A stretch of 64,000 bases of DNA. Origin: Candidatus Omnitrophota bacterium. Its GTDB lineage: Bacteria; Omnitrophota; Gorgyraeia; JABMRN01; RBG-13-46-9. The position numbers and the translations under genes are program-made. Where the stretch lies: assembly GCA_016782445.1 (NCBI GenBank), contig JADHYM010000002.1:583-64582 (forward strand), written 5' to 3'. Numbering within the stretch: the first letter of the stretch is position 1; each line of letters starts with the position of its first letter. The notes under the pieces were generated by a model. That model ran no database searches, was not told the DNA's origin, and worked only from the letters and a program-made list of their open reading frames with translations. This document shows positions 2,744 to 53,054 of this stretch, piece by piece.

Positions 2744-3630
2744 GCGCCCGGGCATTTTGTCCGCTTTGTTCGTACGGGAAGGCAAAATCCGCATTTCCTT
2801 ACGAAACCATCTGGGCTGAAAAAAAATACGCATACAAAAAATGCTCTTCCTGCGGCACGACGTACATATCCCCCCTTCCTTCAGGTGAGGAGCTTGAGAA
2901 AATTTATTCTTTCGAGTCATACCACAACGTTTTCTATCATGAGCCGGCCGCAGAAAAGTACAAAAAATCCGTAAAAACACTTATGCAATATGCCGGAGAA
3001 AGAAAAACGCTTCTTGACTTTGGTTGCGGGGCCGGCTTTTTTTTAGACGAGGCGCAAAAATCCGGTTTTATCTGTTCGGGCACGGAACTTGATCACGAAA
3101 CCCGGGAAAAAGCGCGCGCACTTTGCAAAGCGGATATTTTTTCTTTTGAAGAAATGCAAGGCACCTCCCGGAAATTTGATATTATTCATATGGGAGACGT
3201 CCTCGAGCATCTCGGGGATCCTCATAAAGCCGTAGAAGGGCTTAAGGCGCTTCTTGAGCCCGGAGGTATCTTCTTCTTTGAGGGGCCCCTTCAAAATAAC
3301 CTTAGCGTTGTGTACTATTTTGCGCTGATTTTAAAAAATGTAAAAAGATTTTTTAAAATTGACAAACCCGCAAAAATTCCGCCTACTCACCTTATCCTGA
3401 CAAACAAAAATGCAATGATTGATTTCTTTTCAAAAAGACTCGGCCTTAAAATGAAGTATTTTCGAATTTACGAGACAGGCTGGCCGTATCTTTCTAAAAA
3501 GCCGGAAAAAGCCACCCCGGAGTGGTATCTTAAGGCGGTTGTGGGGTGGGCAGCCATTTTTTTAAGCCTTCTTGAGCCCGGAAATAATAAGAAACTCGGC
3601 AATCGTTTTATGGCAATATGTGCAGAATAG
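2740..3630 (+). CDS. Class I SAM-dependent methyltransferase with N-terminal Cys4 zinc-ribbon-like motif
   Basis: SAM-binding motif LLDFGCGAGFF. N-terminal CPLC...CSSCG. The GTG start overlaps the upstream stop codon. Confidence 0.75.
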   Translation: MSARAFCPLCSYGKAKSAFPYETIWAEKKYAYKKCSSCGTTYISPLPSGEELEKIYSFESYHNVFYHEPAAEKYKKSVKTLMQYAGERKTLLDFGCGAGFFLDEAQKSGFICSGTELDHETREKARALCKADIFSFEEMQGTSRKFDIIHMGDVLEHLGDPHKAVEGLKALLEPGGIFFFEGPLQNNLSVVYYFALILKNVKRFFKIDKPAKIPPTHLILTNKNAMIDFFSKRLGLKMKYFRIYETGWPYLSKKPEKATPEWYLKAVVGWAAIFLSLLEPGNNKKLGNRFMAICAE

Positions 3631-10188: not shown

Positions 10189-11126
10189 ACGACCCAAAAC
10201 CCTATCTTTCCCCCGGGCCGCATATTTTCGGAAACCAGGAGACGCCCCGGATGGTGAGGGACGTTATTATAGCGCTTATGCCGGCGGTGGCCGTAAGCAT
10301 TTATTTTTTCAGAATACGCGCGTTTCTTTTGATAGTAATATCCATGGCCGCGTGTGTCGGTGCGGAAGCGGCCATACAATTTCTAATGAAAAGAAAAATT
10401 AGGATAACCGACGGAAGCGCGGTAGTTACCGGAATTCTTTTTGCCATGATTATACCGCCGGCGCTTCCTTTGTGGATGGCCGCCCTCGGTTCTTTTGTCG
10501 CCATAGGCATCGCGAAAGAACTTTTCGGAGGCTTGGGCTCAAACATATTCAATCCGGCGCTTTTGGGAAGAGCCTTCCTCATGGCGGCTTTCCCTACTTT
10601 TATGACGGCGTGGAACGCGCCGATTACACTGGACGCTGTTACCGGCGCTACGCCGCTGGGGCTTGTAAAGTTCAGCCATAATCTCGATATAAGCTACCTT
10701 AATTTATTTCTCGGAAACGTATCGGGTTGCATAGGAGAGACCTCGGCTGCGGCGCTTCTCTTGGGAGCGGGATACCTTTTTTTAAGAAAAACCATCGACT
10801 GGAGGATACCGCTTAGCTATCTCGGAACCGTGGCCATTATAAGTTTCATAACAGAAAAAGCCTCTCCCGGCACGTATGCGGGGCCCGCGTTTCATCTTCT
10901 GGCGGGCGGGGTAATAATAGGCGCCTTTTTCATGGCGACGGATCCCGTAACGAGCCCCGTGACAAAAGCCGGACGCTGGATTTTCGGCATAGGCTGCGGT
11001 TTGATTACCATGGTCATAAGGCTCTGGGGAGGCTTGCCGGAAGGTGTCATGTATTCGATACTGCTCATGAACGGGCTTACGCCGATACTTAACCGGATCA
11101 CAAGGCCTAAGAGATACGGAACATAG
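10185..11126 (+). CDS. rnfD: Rnf complex subunit D
   Basis: Polytopic membrane protein with the FFMATDPVTSP motif (FMN attachment region of RnfD/NqrB). ATGA overlap with the rnfC stop. Confidence 0.92.
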   Translation: MNDPKPYLSPGPHIFGNQETPRMVRDVIIALMPAVAVSIYFFRIRAFLLIVISMAACVGAEAAIQFLMKRKIRITDGSAVVTGILFAMIIPPALPLWMAALGSFVAIGIAKELFGGLGSNIFNPALLGRAFLMAAFPTFMTAWNAPITLDAVTGATPLGLVKFSHNLDISYLNLFLGNVSGCIGETSAAALLLGAGYLFLRKTIDWRIPLSYLGTVAIISFITEKASPGTYAGPAFHLLAGGVIIGAFFMATDPVTSPVTKAGRWIFGIGCGLITMVIRLWGGLPEGVMYSILLMNGLTPILNRITRPKRYGT

Positions 11127-11189
11127 AAGCGCAAAACGAAAAGCGCAAAACGAAAAACCAAAACTCAAAACTTAAAACAAGAAATAAAT

Positions 11190-11744
11190 ATGAAAAATAC
11201 AATTAAAATGATAATAGTGCTTACGGTGCTCGGGCTTCTATCGGGAGCCGCACTCGTTTTTATTTACAGATACGCTTCCCCGCTTATCGCGCAAAATCAA
11301 AAAGACGAGACTGAAAAAGCCATTTATAAAATATTTCCCGAAGGAAAAAATTATGACACGCGGATAATCGGCGAGGACAGCGTTTACAAGGTTAAGGATA
11401 AAAATGGTAAATTACTCGGCTATGCATTTCCGGCCTCCGGAAACGGCTATCAGGGCCAGATAGATATGCTGGTAGGTATCCAGCCGGATCTCGCAACGCT
11501 TGCTGGCATAGAGGTTCTGGATTCCCAGGAAACGCCTGGCCTCGGACAGGAGATAACTACGGAAAAATTTGAAAATCAATTTAAGGGGCTTAAAGTCTCG
11601 CCCTCGATCAGCTACGTGAAAAATCAAAAACCCCAGAACCCGAATGAAATCGAAGCGATAACCGGAGCCACGGTCTCATCAAAGGCGGTTGTCACGATAT
11701 TGAACGAAAGAATAGCGAAAATAAAAAAAGATCTAAACAAATGA
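11190..11744 (+). CDS. rnfG: Rnf complex subunit G
   Basis: Single N-terminal TM segment. FMN-binding domain ending in ITGATVSSKAV. Confidence 0.9.
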   Translation: MKNTIKMIIVLTVLGLLSGAALVFIYRYASPLIAQNQKDETEKAIYKIFPEGKNYDTRIIGEDSVYKVKDKNGKLLGYAFPASGNGYQGQIDMLVGIQPDLATLAGIEVLDSQETPGLGQEITTEKFENQFKGLKVSPSISYVKNQKPQNPNEIEAITGATVSSKAVVTILNERIAKIKKDLNK

Positions 11745-34700: not shown

Positions 34701-34796
34701 AAATTCACAGTTTTCAGTCTTCAGTTATCAGTTTTTAGAGTTTGAGAACTGAACGCCGATAACTGAAAACTGAATACTAATAACTGAAAACTAAAA
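34701..34796. repeat. Word-stutter inverted repeat (cagtt/aactg words) between purC and purM
   Basis: cacagttttcagtcttcagttatcagttttt is followed by gaactgaacgccgataactgaaaactgaatactaataactgaaaac. The same vocabulary recurs at 35799-35866. Confidence 0.75.
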
Positions 34797-35798
34797 ATGA
34801 AGCTCTCCTACAAGAAAGCCGGAGTAGACATAGACAAGGCGAATCTTTTTATCAAGAAGATAAAGCCGCTCATAATGTCCACAAAAAGACCCGGGTGGAT
34901 GAGTAATGTCGGGGCTTTTGCTGGATTTTTCAGGCCCAACCTCTCCGGGTGCAAAGATCCACTCATTGTTTCTTCGACAGATGGCGTCGGAACAAAGCTT
35001 TTAATAGCCAATTGGGCCGGCATACATGATACGGTCGGGGTCGACCTTGTTGCCATGAACGTAAACGATTGCGTGGCATGCGGGGCAGAGCCGCTTTTTT
35101 TTCTGGATTATTTTGCAACCGGCAAAATTTCTCTTAAAACCTCCTATGACGTGCTTAAAGGAGTTGCAACAGGTTGTAGGCGCGCCGGCTGCGCGCTGAT
35201 AGGCGGTGAAACCGCGGAATTACCGGGTATGTACAAACCCGGAGAATATGACCTGGCGGGCTTTTGCGTAGGAATAGTGGACAAAAAAAACGTGATAGAC
35301 GGATCGAAAATAAAAAAAGGCGATTTAATCCTGGGCCTTGCCTCCACCGGAATTCACTCAAACGGATACTCGCTGGTCAGAAAAGTCTTTTCAAAAAGAG
35401 AGCTAAAAACAAAATTAGCGAAAACAATATTAAAGCCGACCGCAATATACGTAAAACCCGCGCTTGATATTATAAAAAGGTTTAAGGTGAGCGGAATAGC
35501 GCATATTACAGGGGGAGGCTTTTACGACAATATAGAACGGCTTCTTCCCAAAGGGGCCAAAGCCGCAATATACAAAGGGACATGGCCTGTCTTGCCGATA
35601 TTTAAACTAATTCAATCCCGCGGCAAAATAGAGAACAGAGAAATGTTCAGGACCTTCAACATGGGTATAGGAATGGCTATTGTAATGCCAAGGAAAGAAA
35701 TTTTCGAAACGCAAAAATATCTCTGTAAAAAGCACAAGCTTAAAAGCTGGGTGATCGGGGAGATCGTTAAAGGAGCGCGCGGGGTGGAGATAATATAA
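34797..35798 (+). CDS. purM: Phosphoribosylformylglycinamidine cyclo-ligase (AIR synthetase)
   Basis: SYKKAGVDIDKAN, STDGVGTKL, DLVAMNVNDC and GGETAELPGMY motifs. Confidence 0.95.
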   Translation: MKLSYKKAGVDIDKANLFIKKIKPLIMSTKRPGWMSNVGAFAGFFRPNLSGCKDPLIVSSTDGVGTKLLIANWAGIHDTVGVDLVAMNVNDCVACGAEPLFFLDYFATGKISLKTSYDVLKGVATGCRRAGCALIGGETAELPGMYKPGEYDLAGFCVGIVDKKNVIDGSKIKKGDLILGLASTGIHSNGYSLVRKVFSKRELKTKLAKTILKPTAIYVKPALDIIKRFKVSGIAHITGGGFYDNIERLLPKGAKAAIYKGTWPVLPIFKLIQSRGKIENREMFRTFNMGIGMAIVMPRKEIFETQKYLCKKHKLKSWVIGEIVKGARGVEII

Positions 35799-35807
35799 CA
35801 GTTTTCA

Positions 35808-35847
35808 GTTGTCAGTATTCAGTTATCAGCGACTGAATGCTGACAAC
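35808..35847. repeat. 15-bp-stem hairpin of cagtt-type words between purM and purD
   Basis: gttgtcagtattcag (35808-35822) pairs with ctgaatgctgacaac (35833-35847), with one wobble position. Confidence 0.75.
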
Positions 35848-35866
35848 CAATAACTGATAACTAAAT

Positions 35867-37219
35867 ATGAAAATACTAGTAATCGGCTCCGGCGGGAGAG
35901 AGCACGCGCTTCTCTGGAAAATAAAGCAGTCAAAAAGGGTAAAAAAACTTTTTGCCGCACCGGGTAACGGCGGAACCGTTGGGATCGCGGAAAATGTTCC
36001 GATAAAAGCGAACGATATAAAAGGCCTGCTCGAGTTTTCTTTAAAGGAAAAAATAGATTTAACTCTGGTAGGGCCGGAAGTGCCTCTTACTATGGGCATT
36101 GTGGATGCTTTTGAAGAGAAGGGGCTGCGGGCTTTTGGGCCTTCAGGAAAAGCTGCCCGGCTTGAGGCAAGCAAAATTTTCACAAAAGAACTTTGCCGGT
36201 CCGAAAACATACCAACAGCTGATTTTAAGATCTTTGACAATGCCGAAAAGGCCAAGGAATATATTGCAAAGAAAGGCGCGCCGCTGGTTATAAAAGCAGA
36301 CGGCCTTGCGGCCGGAAAAGGAGTTATCGTCGCAAAAACTGAAAAAGAAGCAGTTAAAGCGGTAGACTCGATAATGGTCGCGAAGGAATTCGGTTCTTCA
36401 GGCGACAGGATAATCATCGAAGAATGCCTTGAAGGGGAAGAGGCCTCCATCATAGTCGTATCAGACGGAGAAAGTATTGTTTCCCTTGCCTCAAGCCAGG
36501 ACCACAAAAGAATATTTGACAATGATCTGGGGCCGAATACAGGCGGCATGGGCGCTTATTCCCCCGCACCCGTAGTGACGGATGAAATTTTCGATTATAC
36601 CGTATCGAATATGATCAAACCCGCCATAAAAGGGATGAAAAAACAGGGAATTCTTTTTAAAGGCGTTCTTTATGCCGGGATCATGATTACAAAAGAAGGG
36701 CCGAAGCTTCTTGAGTTTAACGCGAGATTCGGGGACCCGGAAACACAGGCTATTCTGCCCAGGCTTTCTTCTGATCTTGTGGGGCTCCTGGAAGGCTCTA
36801 TAGACGGCACGCTTAAAGATTATAGCCTGGATTGGGACGAGAGAAGTTCGGTTTGTGTTGTCGTAACCTCCGGCGGATACCCCGGTAAATACGAAAAAGG
36901 AAAAGAAATACGCGGCATTAATGAGGCTGCTTCGCTTAAAGATACATTTATATTTCATGCAGGAACCCATACGAGCGGGGACAGGTCTCATCCAGACACT
37001 ATACCTGATAATAGAGACCTGTCCCCGTCTAAAGTTTTTACAAATGGCGGACGCGTTTTAAACGTTGTCGCGTTGGGCGATAACATAAAAGAAGCGATCG
37101 AGAAAGCATACACCGCTTGCGAGCGCATAAAGTTCGACCGGATGCATTATCGGAGGGATATAGGGCACAGAGCGTTAAAAGGGTCACAGGCCGCAGGCCG
37201 CAGGCCGCAGGCTTCTTAA
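35867..37219 (+). CDS. purD: Phosphoribosylamine-glycine ligase, with an in-frame palindromic insertion and a repeat-derived C-terminal tail
   Basis: MKILVIGSGGREHAL start, ATP-grasp core, and FHAGT...TNGGRVLNV near the C-terminus. About 15 extra residues lie between FHAGT and TNGGRVL compared with what I recall for E. coli PurD. Confidence 0.93.
   Translation: MKILVIGSGGREHALLWKIKQSKRVKKLFAAPGNGGTVGIAENVPIKANDIKGLLEFSLKEKIDLTLVGPEVPLTMGIVDAFEEKGLRAFGPSGKAARLEASKIFTKELCRSENIPTADFKIFDNAEKAKEYIAKKGAPLVIKADGLAAGKGVIVAKTEKEAVKAVDSIMVAKEFGSSGDRIIIEECLEGEEASIIVVSDGESIVSLASSQDHKRIFDNDLGPNTGGMGAYSPAPVVTDEIFDYTVSNMIKPAIKGMKKQGILFKGVLYAGIMITKEGPKLLEFNARFGDPETQAILPRLSSDLVGLLEGSIDGTLKDYSLDWDERSSVCVVVTSGGYPGKYEKGKEIRGINEAASLKDTFIFHAGTHTSGDRSHPDTIPDNRDLSPSKVFTNGGRVLNVVALGDNIKEAIEKAYTACERIKFDRMHYRRDIGHRALKGSQAAGRRPQAS
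36977..37026. repeat. 50-bp palindromic element inside the purD coding sequence
   Basis: ggggacaggtctc (36977-36989) and gagacctgtcccc (37014-37026) are perfect 13-bp inverted repeats around a 24-nt centre. The element is read in frame, with the insertion as a whole reading HTSGDRSHPDTIPDNRDLSPSK. A related copy lies at 46055-46105. Confidence 0.8.
37187..37212. repeat. Tandem heptamer caggccg (about 3.7 copies) forming the last codons of purD
   Basis: caggccg caggccg caggccg caggc, read directly. It is followed by aacctgtaac words that complement the vocabulary at 41183-41258. Confidence 0.85.
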
Positions 37220-41724: not shown

Positions 41725-41770
41725 ACATACCTCAACGAGTAATTTGTAATCATCGCAATTTCACGGATAA

Positions 41771-41802
41771 TTTGTAATTTGTGAAATCTTACAAATTACA
41801 AA
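41771..41802. terminator. Bidirectional hairpin of taatttgtaa words between convergent nrdR and the PpiD-like gene
   Basis: tttgtaatttgt-gaaatctt-acaaattacaaa is a perfect 12-bp AT-rich stem, embedded in a larger word array (41735-41830). Confidence 0.55.
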
Positions 41803-41835
41803 CAACAAATTACCAATTACCCGTTATTTTTGCGG

Positions 41836-43564: not shown

Positions 43565-44128
43565 ATGTTGGAGATAGAAGCAAAATTCAAGATTACTGAC
43601 GAAAAGGCGATCCTTCGCGCGCTAAAGCGAATCGGTGCGCGGTTTAAGGGTAGAGTCGAAGAGAAAGATATCTATTACAAGGCTCCTACCTGCTGTAAAA
43701 AAGCGAGCGCTGTGAGGCTTCGCTCTGCGGGCAAAAGAAACATCTTTACGGTAAAAAGAATTCCGAAAAAAACCTTCTCGCGAAATTTCAAAATAAGAGA
43801 CGAGTTTGAAACCGATATAGAAAACAAAAAAGCATTTCAGGAGATTCTGAAAATACTCAAATTTAACCCGGCGTTCCGCAAGGAGAAACGCAGGCTTCTT
43901 TACGAATGGAGGAGGCTTAAGATTTCCGTCGACAAACTGCCGTTTATAGGGGTTTATCTCGAGATAGAAGGGGACAGAAAGCGCATCAGAAAAGCCGCGA
44001 AAGCGCTGGGCCTAGACAAAAAGAACGCGATTACCTCTACTTATATGGAACTTTTTGACAGGTATAAAAAACTTAATAAAAAACCCGGCCTGGAACTTGT
44101 ATTCAGACGGAAGAAATCAAGGGGATAA
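43565..44128 (+). CDS. CYTH domain protein (class IV adenylate cyclase / triphosphatase family)
   Basis: N-terminal MLEIEAKFKI (ExExK signature). Later strands with alternating charged residues (VRLRS, FTVK) and LEIEGD near the C-terminus. Confidence 0.75.
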   Translation: MLEIEAKFKITDEKAILRALKRIGARFKGRVEEKDIYYKAPTCCKKASAVRLRSAGKRNIFTVKRIPKKTFSRNFKIRDEFETDIENKKAFQEILKILKFNPAFRKEKRRLLYEWRRLKISVDKLPFIGVYLEIEGDRKRIRKAAKALGLDKKNAITSTYMELFDRYKKLNKKPGLELVFRRKKSRG

Positions 44129-46002: not shown

Positions 46003-46031
46003 TTGACACTAGCTTTTAATAACAATATAAT
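46003..46031 (+). promoter_or_regulatory. Sigma70-like promoter upstream of hisG with a roughly 85-nt leader
   Basis: TTGACA, 17 nt, TATAAT, a consensus-quality promoter. Confidence 0.5.
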
Positions 46032-46054
46032 AGCATTAATAAGTAACCACGCGC

Positions 46055-46105
46055 AGGGACAGGTCTTTAAATATGTCGCATAGTGTCAGGAAGAGGCCCA
46101 TCCCC
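46055..46105. repeat. Second copy of the purD-type palindromic element, in the hisG leader
   Basis: agggacaggtct...catagtgtc...gaggcccatcccc compares with ggggacaggtctc...gacactata...gagacctgtcccc at 36977-37026. The termini are shared. The central part appears inverted. Confidence 0.55.
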
Positions 46106-46120: not shown

Positions 46121-46990
46121 ATGAAATTAAAACTCGGAATACCCAAAGGAAGCTTGCAAGATATAACGGTAAAGCTTTTCAAAAAGGCCGGATTTAACAT
46201 AACCATTCCGTCGCGCAGCTATTTTCCGTCCATAGATGATGATGAAATAGAGGCCATTCTTTTCAGGGCCCAGGAGATGTCGCGCTATGTAGAAAACGGA
46301 ACTATCGACTGCGGGATAACCGGATACGATTGGATCCTTGAAAACAACTCGAAGGTCGTAAGGGTATCAGAATTGATATATGCCAAACAAAGCATGAAGC
46401 CCGTGAGATGGGTACTGGCCGTGCCGGAGGGGTCTTCAGTGAGGAAGGTATCTTGCCTTAAAGGAAAAAAAATAGCGACAGAACTGGTAGGCGTTACCAA
46501 GGCCTACCTTAAAAAGAAAAAAGTTAAGGCGGAAGTAGAATTCAGCTGGGGCGCCACGGAGATAAAAACCAAAATGGGTGCCGATGCGATAGTAGAAGTT
46601 ACTGAAACAGGCGCATCTTTGAGGGCGAACGGTTTAAAGATTATCGATACAGTTTGTGAATCTACTACCAGGGTTATTGCGAACAGAAGCGCCTGGCAAA
46701 ATAGCTGGAAGAGAAAGAAAATCGAAAAAATCGTGCTTCTTTTAAAAGGCGCAATACTCGCCGAACAAAAAGTAGGTCTCAAGATGAACATACAAAAGAA
46801 GAATCTGGAAAAGGTAATCAGCATACTTCCCGCTATGAAAAGGCCCACAATTTCCATGCTTTCGGAAAAAGGCTGGTTTGATGTCGACACGATCATAGAC
46901 GAGGAGGTCGTTAAGGAAATCATCCCGCGCCTTAAAAAAGCCGGCGCAAGCGGAATTATCGAATACCCGCTAAACAAAGTGATATACTGA
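46121..46990 (+). CDS. hisG: ATP phosphoribosyltransferase (long form)
   Basis: [14 protein letters not shown] start and [12 protein letters not shown] motif. The 289-aa length includes the C-terminal regulatory domain. Confidence 0.9.
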
Positions 46991-52985: not shown

Positions 52986-53040
52986 CGTAATTTGTAATTT
53001 GTTGTTTGTAATTTGTATATTTTTACAAATTACCAATTAT
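52986..53040. repeat. Second locus of the taatttgtaa/ttacaaatta word hairpin
   Basis: cgcgtaatttgtaatttgttgtttgtaatttgtatatttttacaaattaccaattat shares both end words (cg.gtaatttgtaat and caaattaccaatta) with 41735-41830. Confidence 0.75.
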
Positions 53041-53054
53041 AAATTACTCGAGCA

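Follow-up and report, generated by a model that had tools for sequence, protein, structure and literature searches.

A palindromic repeat in frame in purD of an Omnitrophota bacterium, probably a REPIN-like mobile element

The purD gene (phosphoribosylamine–glycine ligase) on contig JADHYM010000002.1 of a Candidatus Omnitrophota bacterium contains, in frame, a palindromic element of 52 bp. The palindrome is probably a non-autonomous mobile repeat of the REPIN-like or "TIR-doublet" type (TIR, terminal inverted repeat), moved by a Y1 transposase in the manner of IS200/IS605. Related copies are translated inside other genes, orthologous sites are filled in one genome and empty in another, and core sequences of the same type flank Y1 transposase genes in other genomes. 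The term window refers to the whole analyzed stretch of the contig (64,000 nt), and coordinates are counted from its first letter.

The palindrome in purD and the residues it encodes

An inverted-repeat scan of the window placed CGGGGACAGGTCTC (36976–36989) opposite GAGACCTGTCCCCG (37014–37027), 100% complementary over 14 bp with 24 nt between them. A preliminary description of the same DNA had noted perfect 13-bp inverted repeats around 24 nt inside the purD open reading frame (ORF), which was borne out with one additional base pair. The features of this region are listed below.

35867..37219 (+): purD (phosphoribosylamine–glycine ligase), intact, 450 amino acids; residues ~372–387 encoded by the element
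36976..37027 (−): palindromic repeat element of the window-type family, 52 bp, in frame in purD; reverse orientation relative to the family consensus and to the copy upstream of hisG
36976..36989 (+): left arm CGGGGACAGGTCTC, holding the conserved core GGGGACAGGTCT; its first 8–10 nt are the part kept at orthologous empty sites
36990..37013 (+): 24-nt loop with the family-specific GACACTAT (ATAGTGTC on the opposite strand)
37014..37027 (+): right arm GAGACCTGTCCCCG

The gene product contains the domains GARS_N, GARS_A, and GARS_C, and all of its best homologs belong to Omnitrophota. Folded as RNA, the palindrome reaches −31.9 kcal/mol (z = −6.0 versus shuffles). Since other perfect 13–14-bp hairpins are also found in the 64-kb window, the hairpin alone is not unique; the identity between the window's two copies, and with many copies elsewhere, exceeds chance by far. 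L137, an assembly of this strain from a different sample that is 99.89% identical over 17.6 kb, contains the identical element. In that assembly, an A→T exchange at window position 36293 (L137 position 9920) changes K143 of PurD to a stop codon (K143*), and the gene is called as two ORFs. Either low coverage led to an error here, or the population includes a variant with a purD pseudogene, which would weaken the reading of PurD as an essential enzyme.

In the PurD of the window, 24 residues separate the motifs FHAGT and TNGGRVL. Among 120 Omnitrophota PurD homologs, the most frequent lengths of this loop are 8 residues (43 proteins) and 14 residues (33 proteins). An HMMER alignment to the solved PurD of Yersinia (PDB 3mjf) opens a 15-residue gap exactly at the insertion, and the Pfam GARS_C match extends over 108 residues for 92 profile positions. 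The closest homolog, P0001 (locus L002; 85% amino acid and 84% nucleotide identity), has a loop of 10 residues and lacks this type of palindrome. It had been proposed that the palindrome accounts for the extra residues and that relatives sharing them without palindromic DNA would speak for an ordinary loop; the closest relative has neither. The element adds ~16 residues (the GDRSHPDTIPDNRDLSPSK region).

The AlphaFold2 model of PurD has a mean pLDDT (predicted local distance difference test) of 85.6. Residues 375–386 score below 50, and residues 370–389 form a coil between the strands 367–369 and 390–393. Because this low-confidence coil lies between two strands, the insertion is modeled as a disordered extension of the tip of a C-domain β-hairpin, occupying a surface loop, which agrees with the earlier suggestion that it is tolerated in such a loop.

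Related copies and their empty sites

Species-representative genomes (one per species) were scanned with the left arm and the loop, and matches from a profile search and from metagenomes were added afterward. The scan of the representative genomes yielded five true copies, four in Omnitrophota-labeled metagenome-assembled genomes (MAGs) and one in a MAG labeled "uncultured Planctomycetia" (L010, CAZYPU010000003.1). The isoleucyl-tRNA synthetase (IleRS) encoded by the latter has top matches of 79%–83% identity, and the named best matches are all from Omnitrophota, so that the MAG label or the binning looks doubtful. In total, the window-type family with the conserved loop ...ATAGTGTC... occupies 11 independent sites.

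Internal and in frame (8 of 11 sites): purD of the window; purD of P0012, at the same codon; priA; ileS (two orthologs); a gene for an ABC ATPase; the linker of a solute-binding protein; coaX; rmlD
Overlapping a gene end (2 of 11): 3' end and stop codon of a TPR gene; 5' end of cobO
Intergenic (1 of 11): 5' untranslated region (UTR) of hisG

Pfam domains flank or span each of the internal sites. The search for further palindromes suggested by the preliminary description thus led to many more copies, most of them in frame inside conserved genes, rather than to none. An ordinary lineage-specific PurD loop that is palindromic by chance, or an assembly artifact, can be regarded as refuted. The length of the PurD loop does vary from 5 to 33 residues across Omnitrophota, but the 52 bp recur in unrelated genes and genomes (nhmmer E = 1e-10 to 1e-18), the identical element is present in the independent assembly L137, and the closest ortholog is devoid of it.

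The copies occur in both orientations and in several reading frames and are translated into peptides such as GDRS...DLSP, GTGL...RPVP, and GDRS...RPVP. The arms are free of stop codons in all six frames, and the whole consensus is open in four of the six. Inserted lengths of 48, 78, and 45 nt are all multiples of three. Stop-free arms and open frames allow copies to survive in loops and linkers when their length is divisible by three. The arms co-vary, with double-sided changes at three pairs (CG:7/UA:5, UA:6/CG:5, and AU:5/GC:4); compensated cells numbered 16, compared to 7.9 ± 2.6 in shuffles, and none of 500 shuffles reached this value. Judging from these changes, the complementarity of the hairpin is maintained across the copies.

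Two of the copies showed peculiarities. The purD copy of P0012 (L001 1219–1302) is a composite, in which a 29-nt half copy is fused to a full copy of opposite orientation, resulting in a 26-residue insertion with a fold of −48 kcal/mol. In L015 (6860–6873), the ORF of the ABC ATPase stops at the contig edge in ...MGTGLFG, a peptide with which another copy of the element begins in this gene; apparently, the assembly broke at this copy. Orthologs without the GGGGACAGGTCT element hold other small palindromes at the same loop positions, namely CATTCCGAACCAGGGTCGGAATG in the purD of P0001 (L002 1710–1732), ATTCCGTTCCCGGAACGGAA...TTCCGTTCCGGGAACGGAAT in the binding-protein linker (L015 ~2520–2570), and an imperfect dyad in coaX of L018 (within 10528–11403, minus strand). 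The same protein loops may be used by several hairpin families.

The second copy in the window precedes hisG, in line with the similar element reported there earlier; its supposedly inverted center results from the alignment of this copy to the reverse complement of the purD copy. The nhmmer profile detected both copies at E ~1e-15 and no third match in the window.

46003..46031 (+): sigma-70-type promoter match TTGACA-17-TATAAT, 12/12 (consensus match only)
46053..46105 (+): second, decayed element copy in the hisG 5' UTR; left core AGGGACAGGTCT, right arm with 3 mismatches
46121..46990 (+): hisG (HisG and HisG_C domains); ribosome binding site AGGAG just 3' of the element
43970..43977 (+): solo core GGGGACAG with no adjoining element

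This copy is located between the promoter match and the ribosome binding site and ATG of hisG, the identity of which was verified by its domains. Given the promoter match, the copy would fall in the transcribed leader. Its fold is weak and no better than that of shuffled sequences (z = −1.3), and we interpret it as a putative older, decaying insertion of the other orientation in a transcribed 5' UTR. The solo GGGGACAG is a candidate for an unoccupied target or a footprint; this sequence is found three times in the window (0.8 expected).

We considered whether the hairpin has a selected host function, as an mRNA stabilizer, a regulatory hairpin, or a recognition sequence of the protein-binding or DNA-uptake type, instead of being a selfish mobile element. 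The strongly conserved core and the maintained complementarity would fit such a role, as would the elements in 5' UTRs or at gene ends (hisG; L011 and L117; a high-GC family upstream of genes). Several host genes function in DNA maintenance (priA, addB, a DEAD/MrfA helicase, tatD), echoing the bias of repetitive extragenic palindromic (REP) sequences (PMC3733652). However, the host genes of the copies are unrelated, the copies differ in reading frame and in orientation with respect to transcription, close orthologs lack the element, and the hisG copy is decaying. Searches of Rfam with the whole window (gathering thresholds), both copies (E ≤ 10), and 19 related loci returned only tRNAs, RNase P, and chance microRNA matches, indicating that the element is not a described RNA family. 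A host function is, on this evidence, very improbable. A BLAST all-versus-all comparison of the ORFs in the loci, in which a recurrent neighbor protein was sought, gave only syntenic duplicates, ABC ATPases, histidine kinases, and the translated element itself.

The mobility proposed in the preliminary description was corroborated by the multi-copy family and by orthologs that differ in the presence of the element. Whereas the window purD is filled, that of L002 (84% nucleotide identity) is empty. The purD of P0012 (L001) is filled at the same codon, and its relative L136 (80% nucleotide identity) is empty. For ileS, the element is present in L010 and L145 but missing from L143 and L144. In the empty purD of L136, the sequence reads ACG TAC GGG GAC AGG ATT CTT; the filled allele of L001 is ACG TAC GGG GAC AGG TCT C...CCC CGT CAA GGG TTC TT. 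The empty ileS of L143 reads CGT GTG GGG ACA GTA AGT at the position where the left arm of L010 and L145 starts. Part of the core, GGGGACAG(G), is therefore present at the exact site of these empty alleles, with 10 nt in purD of L136 and 8 nt in ileS of L143. The chance of such a match is ~1e-5 per site, and the loop of the element-free allele is of canonical length.

Among 108 elements, flanking direct repeats indicative of a target duplication were not in excess at any boundary offset. This bears on a classical MITE (a miniature transposable element with inverted repeats), that is, a deletion derivative of a DDE-transposase insertion sequence, with 14-bp TIRs that are bound as double strands and moved by cut-and-paste with target-site duplication. 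The perfect, TIR-like arms, the small size, and the many copies would be in accordance with a MITE, and many copies lie at contig ends, as expected of repeats that break assemblies. Besides the lacking duplications, 8–10 nt of the "TIR" are kept at empty sites, the palindromes of many families run past the core with variable sequence, so that the conserved part is not terminal, and Y1/HUH enzymes are the only transposases found beside the repeats. A MITE origin is accordingly considered very unlikely. A duplication of "TA" as in IS630-like elements, hinted at by the flanks in L015 and L016, was not general.

Template switching without a dedicated enzyme (quasi-palindrome correction or microhomology-mediated copying) between loci with arm-like sequence is a live rival, although an unlikely one. 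The arm-like sequence at empty sites, a 3-nt AGG microhomology at the purD junction, the perfect complementarity of the arms even where they differ between copies, and the half copy fused to a full copy in L001 are in agreement with such copying. It leaves unexplained that the same 12-nt core recurs across families at 25%–72% GC and that it flanks Y1 transposase genes in four independent contexts; moreover, loop conservation extends to genomes with only 67% identity between the host genes.

The core sequence and Y1 transposases in other phyla

Palindromes of the 12-nt core GGGGACAGGTCT were detected in more than 120 metagenome stretches using the pattern GGGACAGGTCT-N15-45-AGACCTGTCCC, in which both arms were required. 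The matches listed were grouped into ~77 crude families, whose loops and flanks are very diverse and whose contigs range from 25% to 72% GC. Because natural hairpins inflate the chance expectation, the base outside the searched pattern served as an independent test. This unsearched 12th base was G 5' of the core in 59 and C 3' of it in 60 of the 77 families listed, and a chance origin of the cross-phylum matches was rejected for most of them from this bias; a few singletons may be due to chance. Against viral contigs, the arm pattern gave zero matches, and hence no phage vector is indicated. Other core families also include in-frame copies, in genes for an FMN reductase, TatD, a DEAD/MrfA-type helicase, AddB, SecD, and shikimate dehydrogenase. 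Taxa were assigned by exact protein look-up, which worked for some loci only:

L018: GC 42%; Omnitrophica
L046: GC 26%; Clostridium sp. CAG:343 / Clostridia
L085: GC 70%; the 90%-identity protein cluster also holds Vicinamibacterales and Acidimicrobiia MAG proteins
L138: GC 48%; Prevotella; fetched as transposase context and not via the pattern scan, core of the GGG(G)ACAGG type

Y1_Tnp genes in the loci were located with a regular expression for HUH...Y and subsequently with a hidden Markov model (HMM) built from homologs. Cores of the GGG(G)ACAGG type flank Y1 transposase genes (RAYT/TIRYT) on four independent contigs (L102, L138, L140, and L062). The RAYT-like gene of L102 (PF01797, 1.4e-12; NF047646, 65 bits and thus under its cutoff of 80) encodes the motifs NHVH and YIHQNP and is bounded by inverted GATCAAGGGGACAGGTC units. 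Its homologs (62% and 53% identity) are bounded by ATCAAAGGGACAGGT.../...ACCTGTCCCCATGAT and by GGGTCAYGGGGACAGG... hairpin doublets. In L140, a GGGGACAGG hairpin doublet (3150–3215) was observed within the 5' part of the called RAYT ORF in addition to both flanks, a situation similar to that of subclass 2.4, in which REPs reportedly insert into tnpA_REP genes. The gene of L062 combines Y1_Tnp (3.6e-11) with Bac_DnaA_C (3e-8) and has the Y motif YIHLNP. The contig also contains a GGGGACAGGTCT palindrome at a distance of 4 kb, the arm of which is matched by the left flank of the gene, AAAGGGGGCAGGTCTCAACATTT; the right flank is degenerate. A RAYT fragment adjoins the element in L131.

These associations can be compared with published families. 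RAYT-like "TIRYT" genes are flanked by TIRs sharing GGGGWSAS (GGGG[AT][CG]A[CG]; Di Nocera et al., 2013, PMC3733652), and GGGGACAG, which is present in both purD arms, fits this motif exactly. REPs were also reported inside genes, often those for replication and repair (PMC3733652). TIRYT corresponds to TnpA_Y1 subclass 2.1, which has DnaA-like or helix-turn-helix tails, and subclass 2.6 (YIH[QN]NP, Bacteroidetes) is flanked by atypical structures (Quentin et al., 2018, PMC6006769). According to the same study (PMC6006769), the TIRs of subclass 2.1 are devoid of a DnaA box.

Matches to the DnaA-box consensus TT[AT]TNCACA (mostly TTTTCCACA; TTATCCACA in L122) were observed in 18 of 41 distinct high-GC elements. 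Relative to the inner GGGACAGGTCT hairpin, the motif is positioned 24 nt 5' and/or, in mirror image, 15 nt 3', on both sides in 14 elements; the background frequency is 2.2% per 120 nt. The motif may be a ligand of the DnaA-like C-terminal domain of TnpA_Y1 subclass 2.1 (TIRYT). High-GC loci with the motif are:

L027: 4694–4811
L093: 922–1033
L122: 2624–2741
L132: 1165–1277
L106, L047, L051, and others

The window contains further palindromes of a different kind. AT-rich heptad palindromes, (CAGTTNT)n followed by (ANAACTG)n, extend from 34709 to 34797 and from 35799 to 35866, reaching exactly to the purM and purD start codons; they represent a separate hairpin family or an operator. Two copies of another heptad palindrome, (TAATTTG)n ... 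(CAAATTA)n, are located at 41763–41824 and 52988–53047.

Proposed mechanism, related systems, and significance

In the proposed mechanism, the element, in which two inverted GGGGACAGGTCT cores enclose a loop specific to the family, would be mobilized in trans by a HUH tyrosine (Y1) transposase of the RAYT/TIRYT type, which would act on single-stranded hairpin DNA by "peel and paste". Insertion would take place immediately 3' of GGGGACAG(G) without target duplication, the CTGTCCCC of the inserted element would pair with the host GGGGACAG(G) to form the hairpin, and GGGGACAG(G) would stay behind on excision. The absence of a target duplication, the sequence kept at empty sites, and hairpin recognition are predicted by an IS200/IS605-like mechanism and not by a DDE-type MITE.

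Several points weigh against this interpretation. The empty alleles of L002 and L144 lack the core, though they are diverged throughout the loop, so that it was retained in two of four cases, and both core-retaining sites (L136 and L143) come from a single MAG, JBARPB01. The data fit the core as a target, as an excision footprint, or as the substrate of homology-assisted template switching alike. The purD genes of the window and L001 share the right junction (CCCCG-TCW), which could reflect one ancient insertion followed by several precise losses instead of two targeted insertions. The common descent of the cross-phylum families is independently supported by the unsearched 12th base only. Neither the regular expression nor the HMM found a Y1 transposase gene in the window or in the Omnitrophota loci examined, and the cognate enzyme is therefore deduced from other families with the same core. 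To our knowledge, RAYT-mediated transposition of REPs in vivo is not firmly established. A single ancient orthologous purD insertion was judged less parsimonious than two targeted ones, as at least five lineages that are as near to the window as P0012 have 8-residue loops.

A more specific version is tentative and, in our estimate, somewhat doubtful. The mobile unit may be a "half palindrome" that inserts 3' of a GGGGACAG(G) already present in the genome, which it would select by pairing with its own CTGTCCCC end, and completes its hairpin from host sequence. In Omnitrophota, Bacteroidota, Clostridia, and Acidobacteriota-like genomes, at least two TnpA_Y1 subclasses would read the same core of 8–12 nt, and the DnaA-box-like 9-mer at its fixed distance from the core would be the missing ligand of the DnaA-like C-terminal domain of the transposase in the high-GC family. 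A half palindrome would explain why the perfect arms co-vary even at the outermost variable positions, why the core is present at empty sites, and why insertions recur at the same codon of purD genes that are 67% identical.

The closest kinship of the purD element that we could demonstrate is to the REP/REPIN-like "TIR" repeats of RAYT/TIRYT Y1 transposases. As in REP/REPIN systems (RAYT, TnpA_REP), two inverted units form a hairpin with compensatory changes and no target duplication, and repeats flank a single Y1 HUH transposase gene, as seen for sister families in L102, L138, and L140; intragenic copies, including those in replication and repair genes, are documented there as well (PMC3733652). 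In contrast to REPs, the window-type family has GGGGACAG as its conserved tag instead of GTAG, its units pair directly with each other and do not each form a small hairpin, and 8 of its 11 sites are intragenic, whereas REPs are mainly extragenic. Neither GTAG nor CGTC is conserved as a tag in the sequences flanking 12 copies of the family; CGTC occurs only at the two purD copies and in L133. With the TIR repeats of TIRYT/TnpA_Y1 subclass 2.1 ("TIRtrons"), the element shares the motif described above and the occurrence as singles, dimers, and clusters; a gene of the type expected for this subclass, Y1_Tnp with Bac_DnaA_C, was seen in L062, where the left flank matches the arm and the right flank is degenerate. 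TIRtrons, however, were reported as flanking TIRs of moderate abundance from Acidobacteria, Proteobacteria, and Planctomycetes; their descriptions include neither a mainly intragenic, in-frame Omnitrophota family nor a core kept at empty sites, and the published TIRs lack the DnaA box that has a counterpart at a fixed distance in the high-GC family.

IS200/IS605 and their non-autonomous PATE derivatives likewise make no target duplication, and they insert 3' of a short sequence that remains after excision, as proposed above for the purD element. Their hairpin ends are recognized as single-stranded DNA by a Y1 HUH enzyme, a mechanism that we infer here. Unlike the purD element, they have targets of 4–5 nt and not 8–10 nt, and two different imperfect hairpin ends in place of one perfect palindrome. 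MITEs that enter ORFs (Correia/NEMIS, Nezha, Coxiella) are also small, non-autonomous inverted repeats that are sometimes translated in host proteins, but they have DDE-type TIRs and target duplications.

A likeness to the Rickettsia palindromic elements (RPEs), drawn earlier, holds for the analogy and not for the family. Like RPE-1 and others, the element is a palindrome in frame in conserved genes that adds a surface peptide, leaves the protein intact, has a high intragenic fraction, and encodes no transposase. RPEs, compared by description only, are ~100–150 bp long and confined to Rickettsiales; the purD element has ~52 bp, belongs to Omnitrophota, and has the different core GGGGACAGGTCT. 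The tetranucleotide end tag reported for RPEs (PMC3733652) has no conserved counterpart in the window-type family.

Both the phenomenon and the repeat class are known from Rickettsia and from REP elements. The Omnitrophota family, its habit of in-frame insertion, and the core-retaining empty sites appear to be undescribed in the literature searched, and a literature search with the core sequence returned unrelated primers only. Practically, assemblies break and gene calls are split at such elements, and the apparent variability of loops is inflated when proteins of uncultured phyla are aligned. The cross-phylum core and the DnaA-box-like motif at its fixed position offer oligonucleotide substrates for TnpA_Y1 subclasses 2.1 and 2.6, and the filled and empty ortholog pairs provide a rare natural read-out of site choice and departure of RAYT/TIRYT-type repeats. 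The findings extend the concept of a palindromic repeat translated inside essential proteins from RPEs and intragenic REPs to Omnitrophota, where the in-frame intragenic location is the dominant fate of the copies and would make them a steady source of loop and linker peptides in small, gene-dense genomes.

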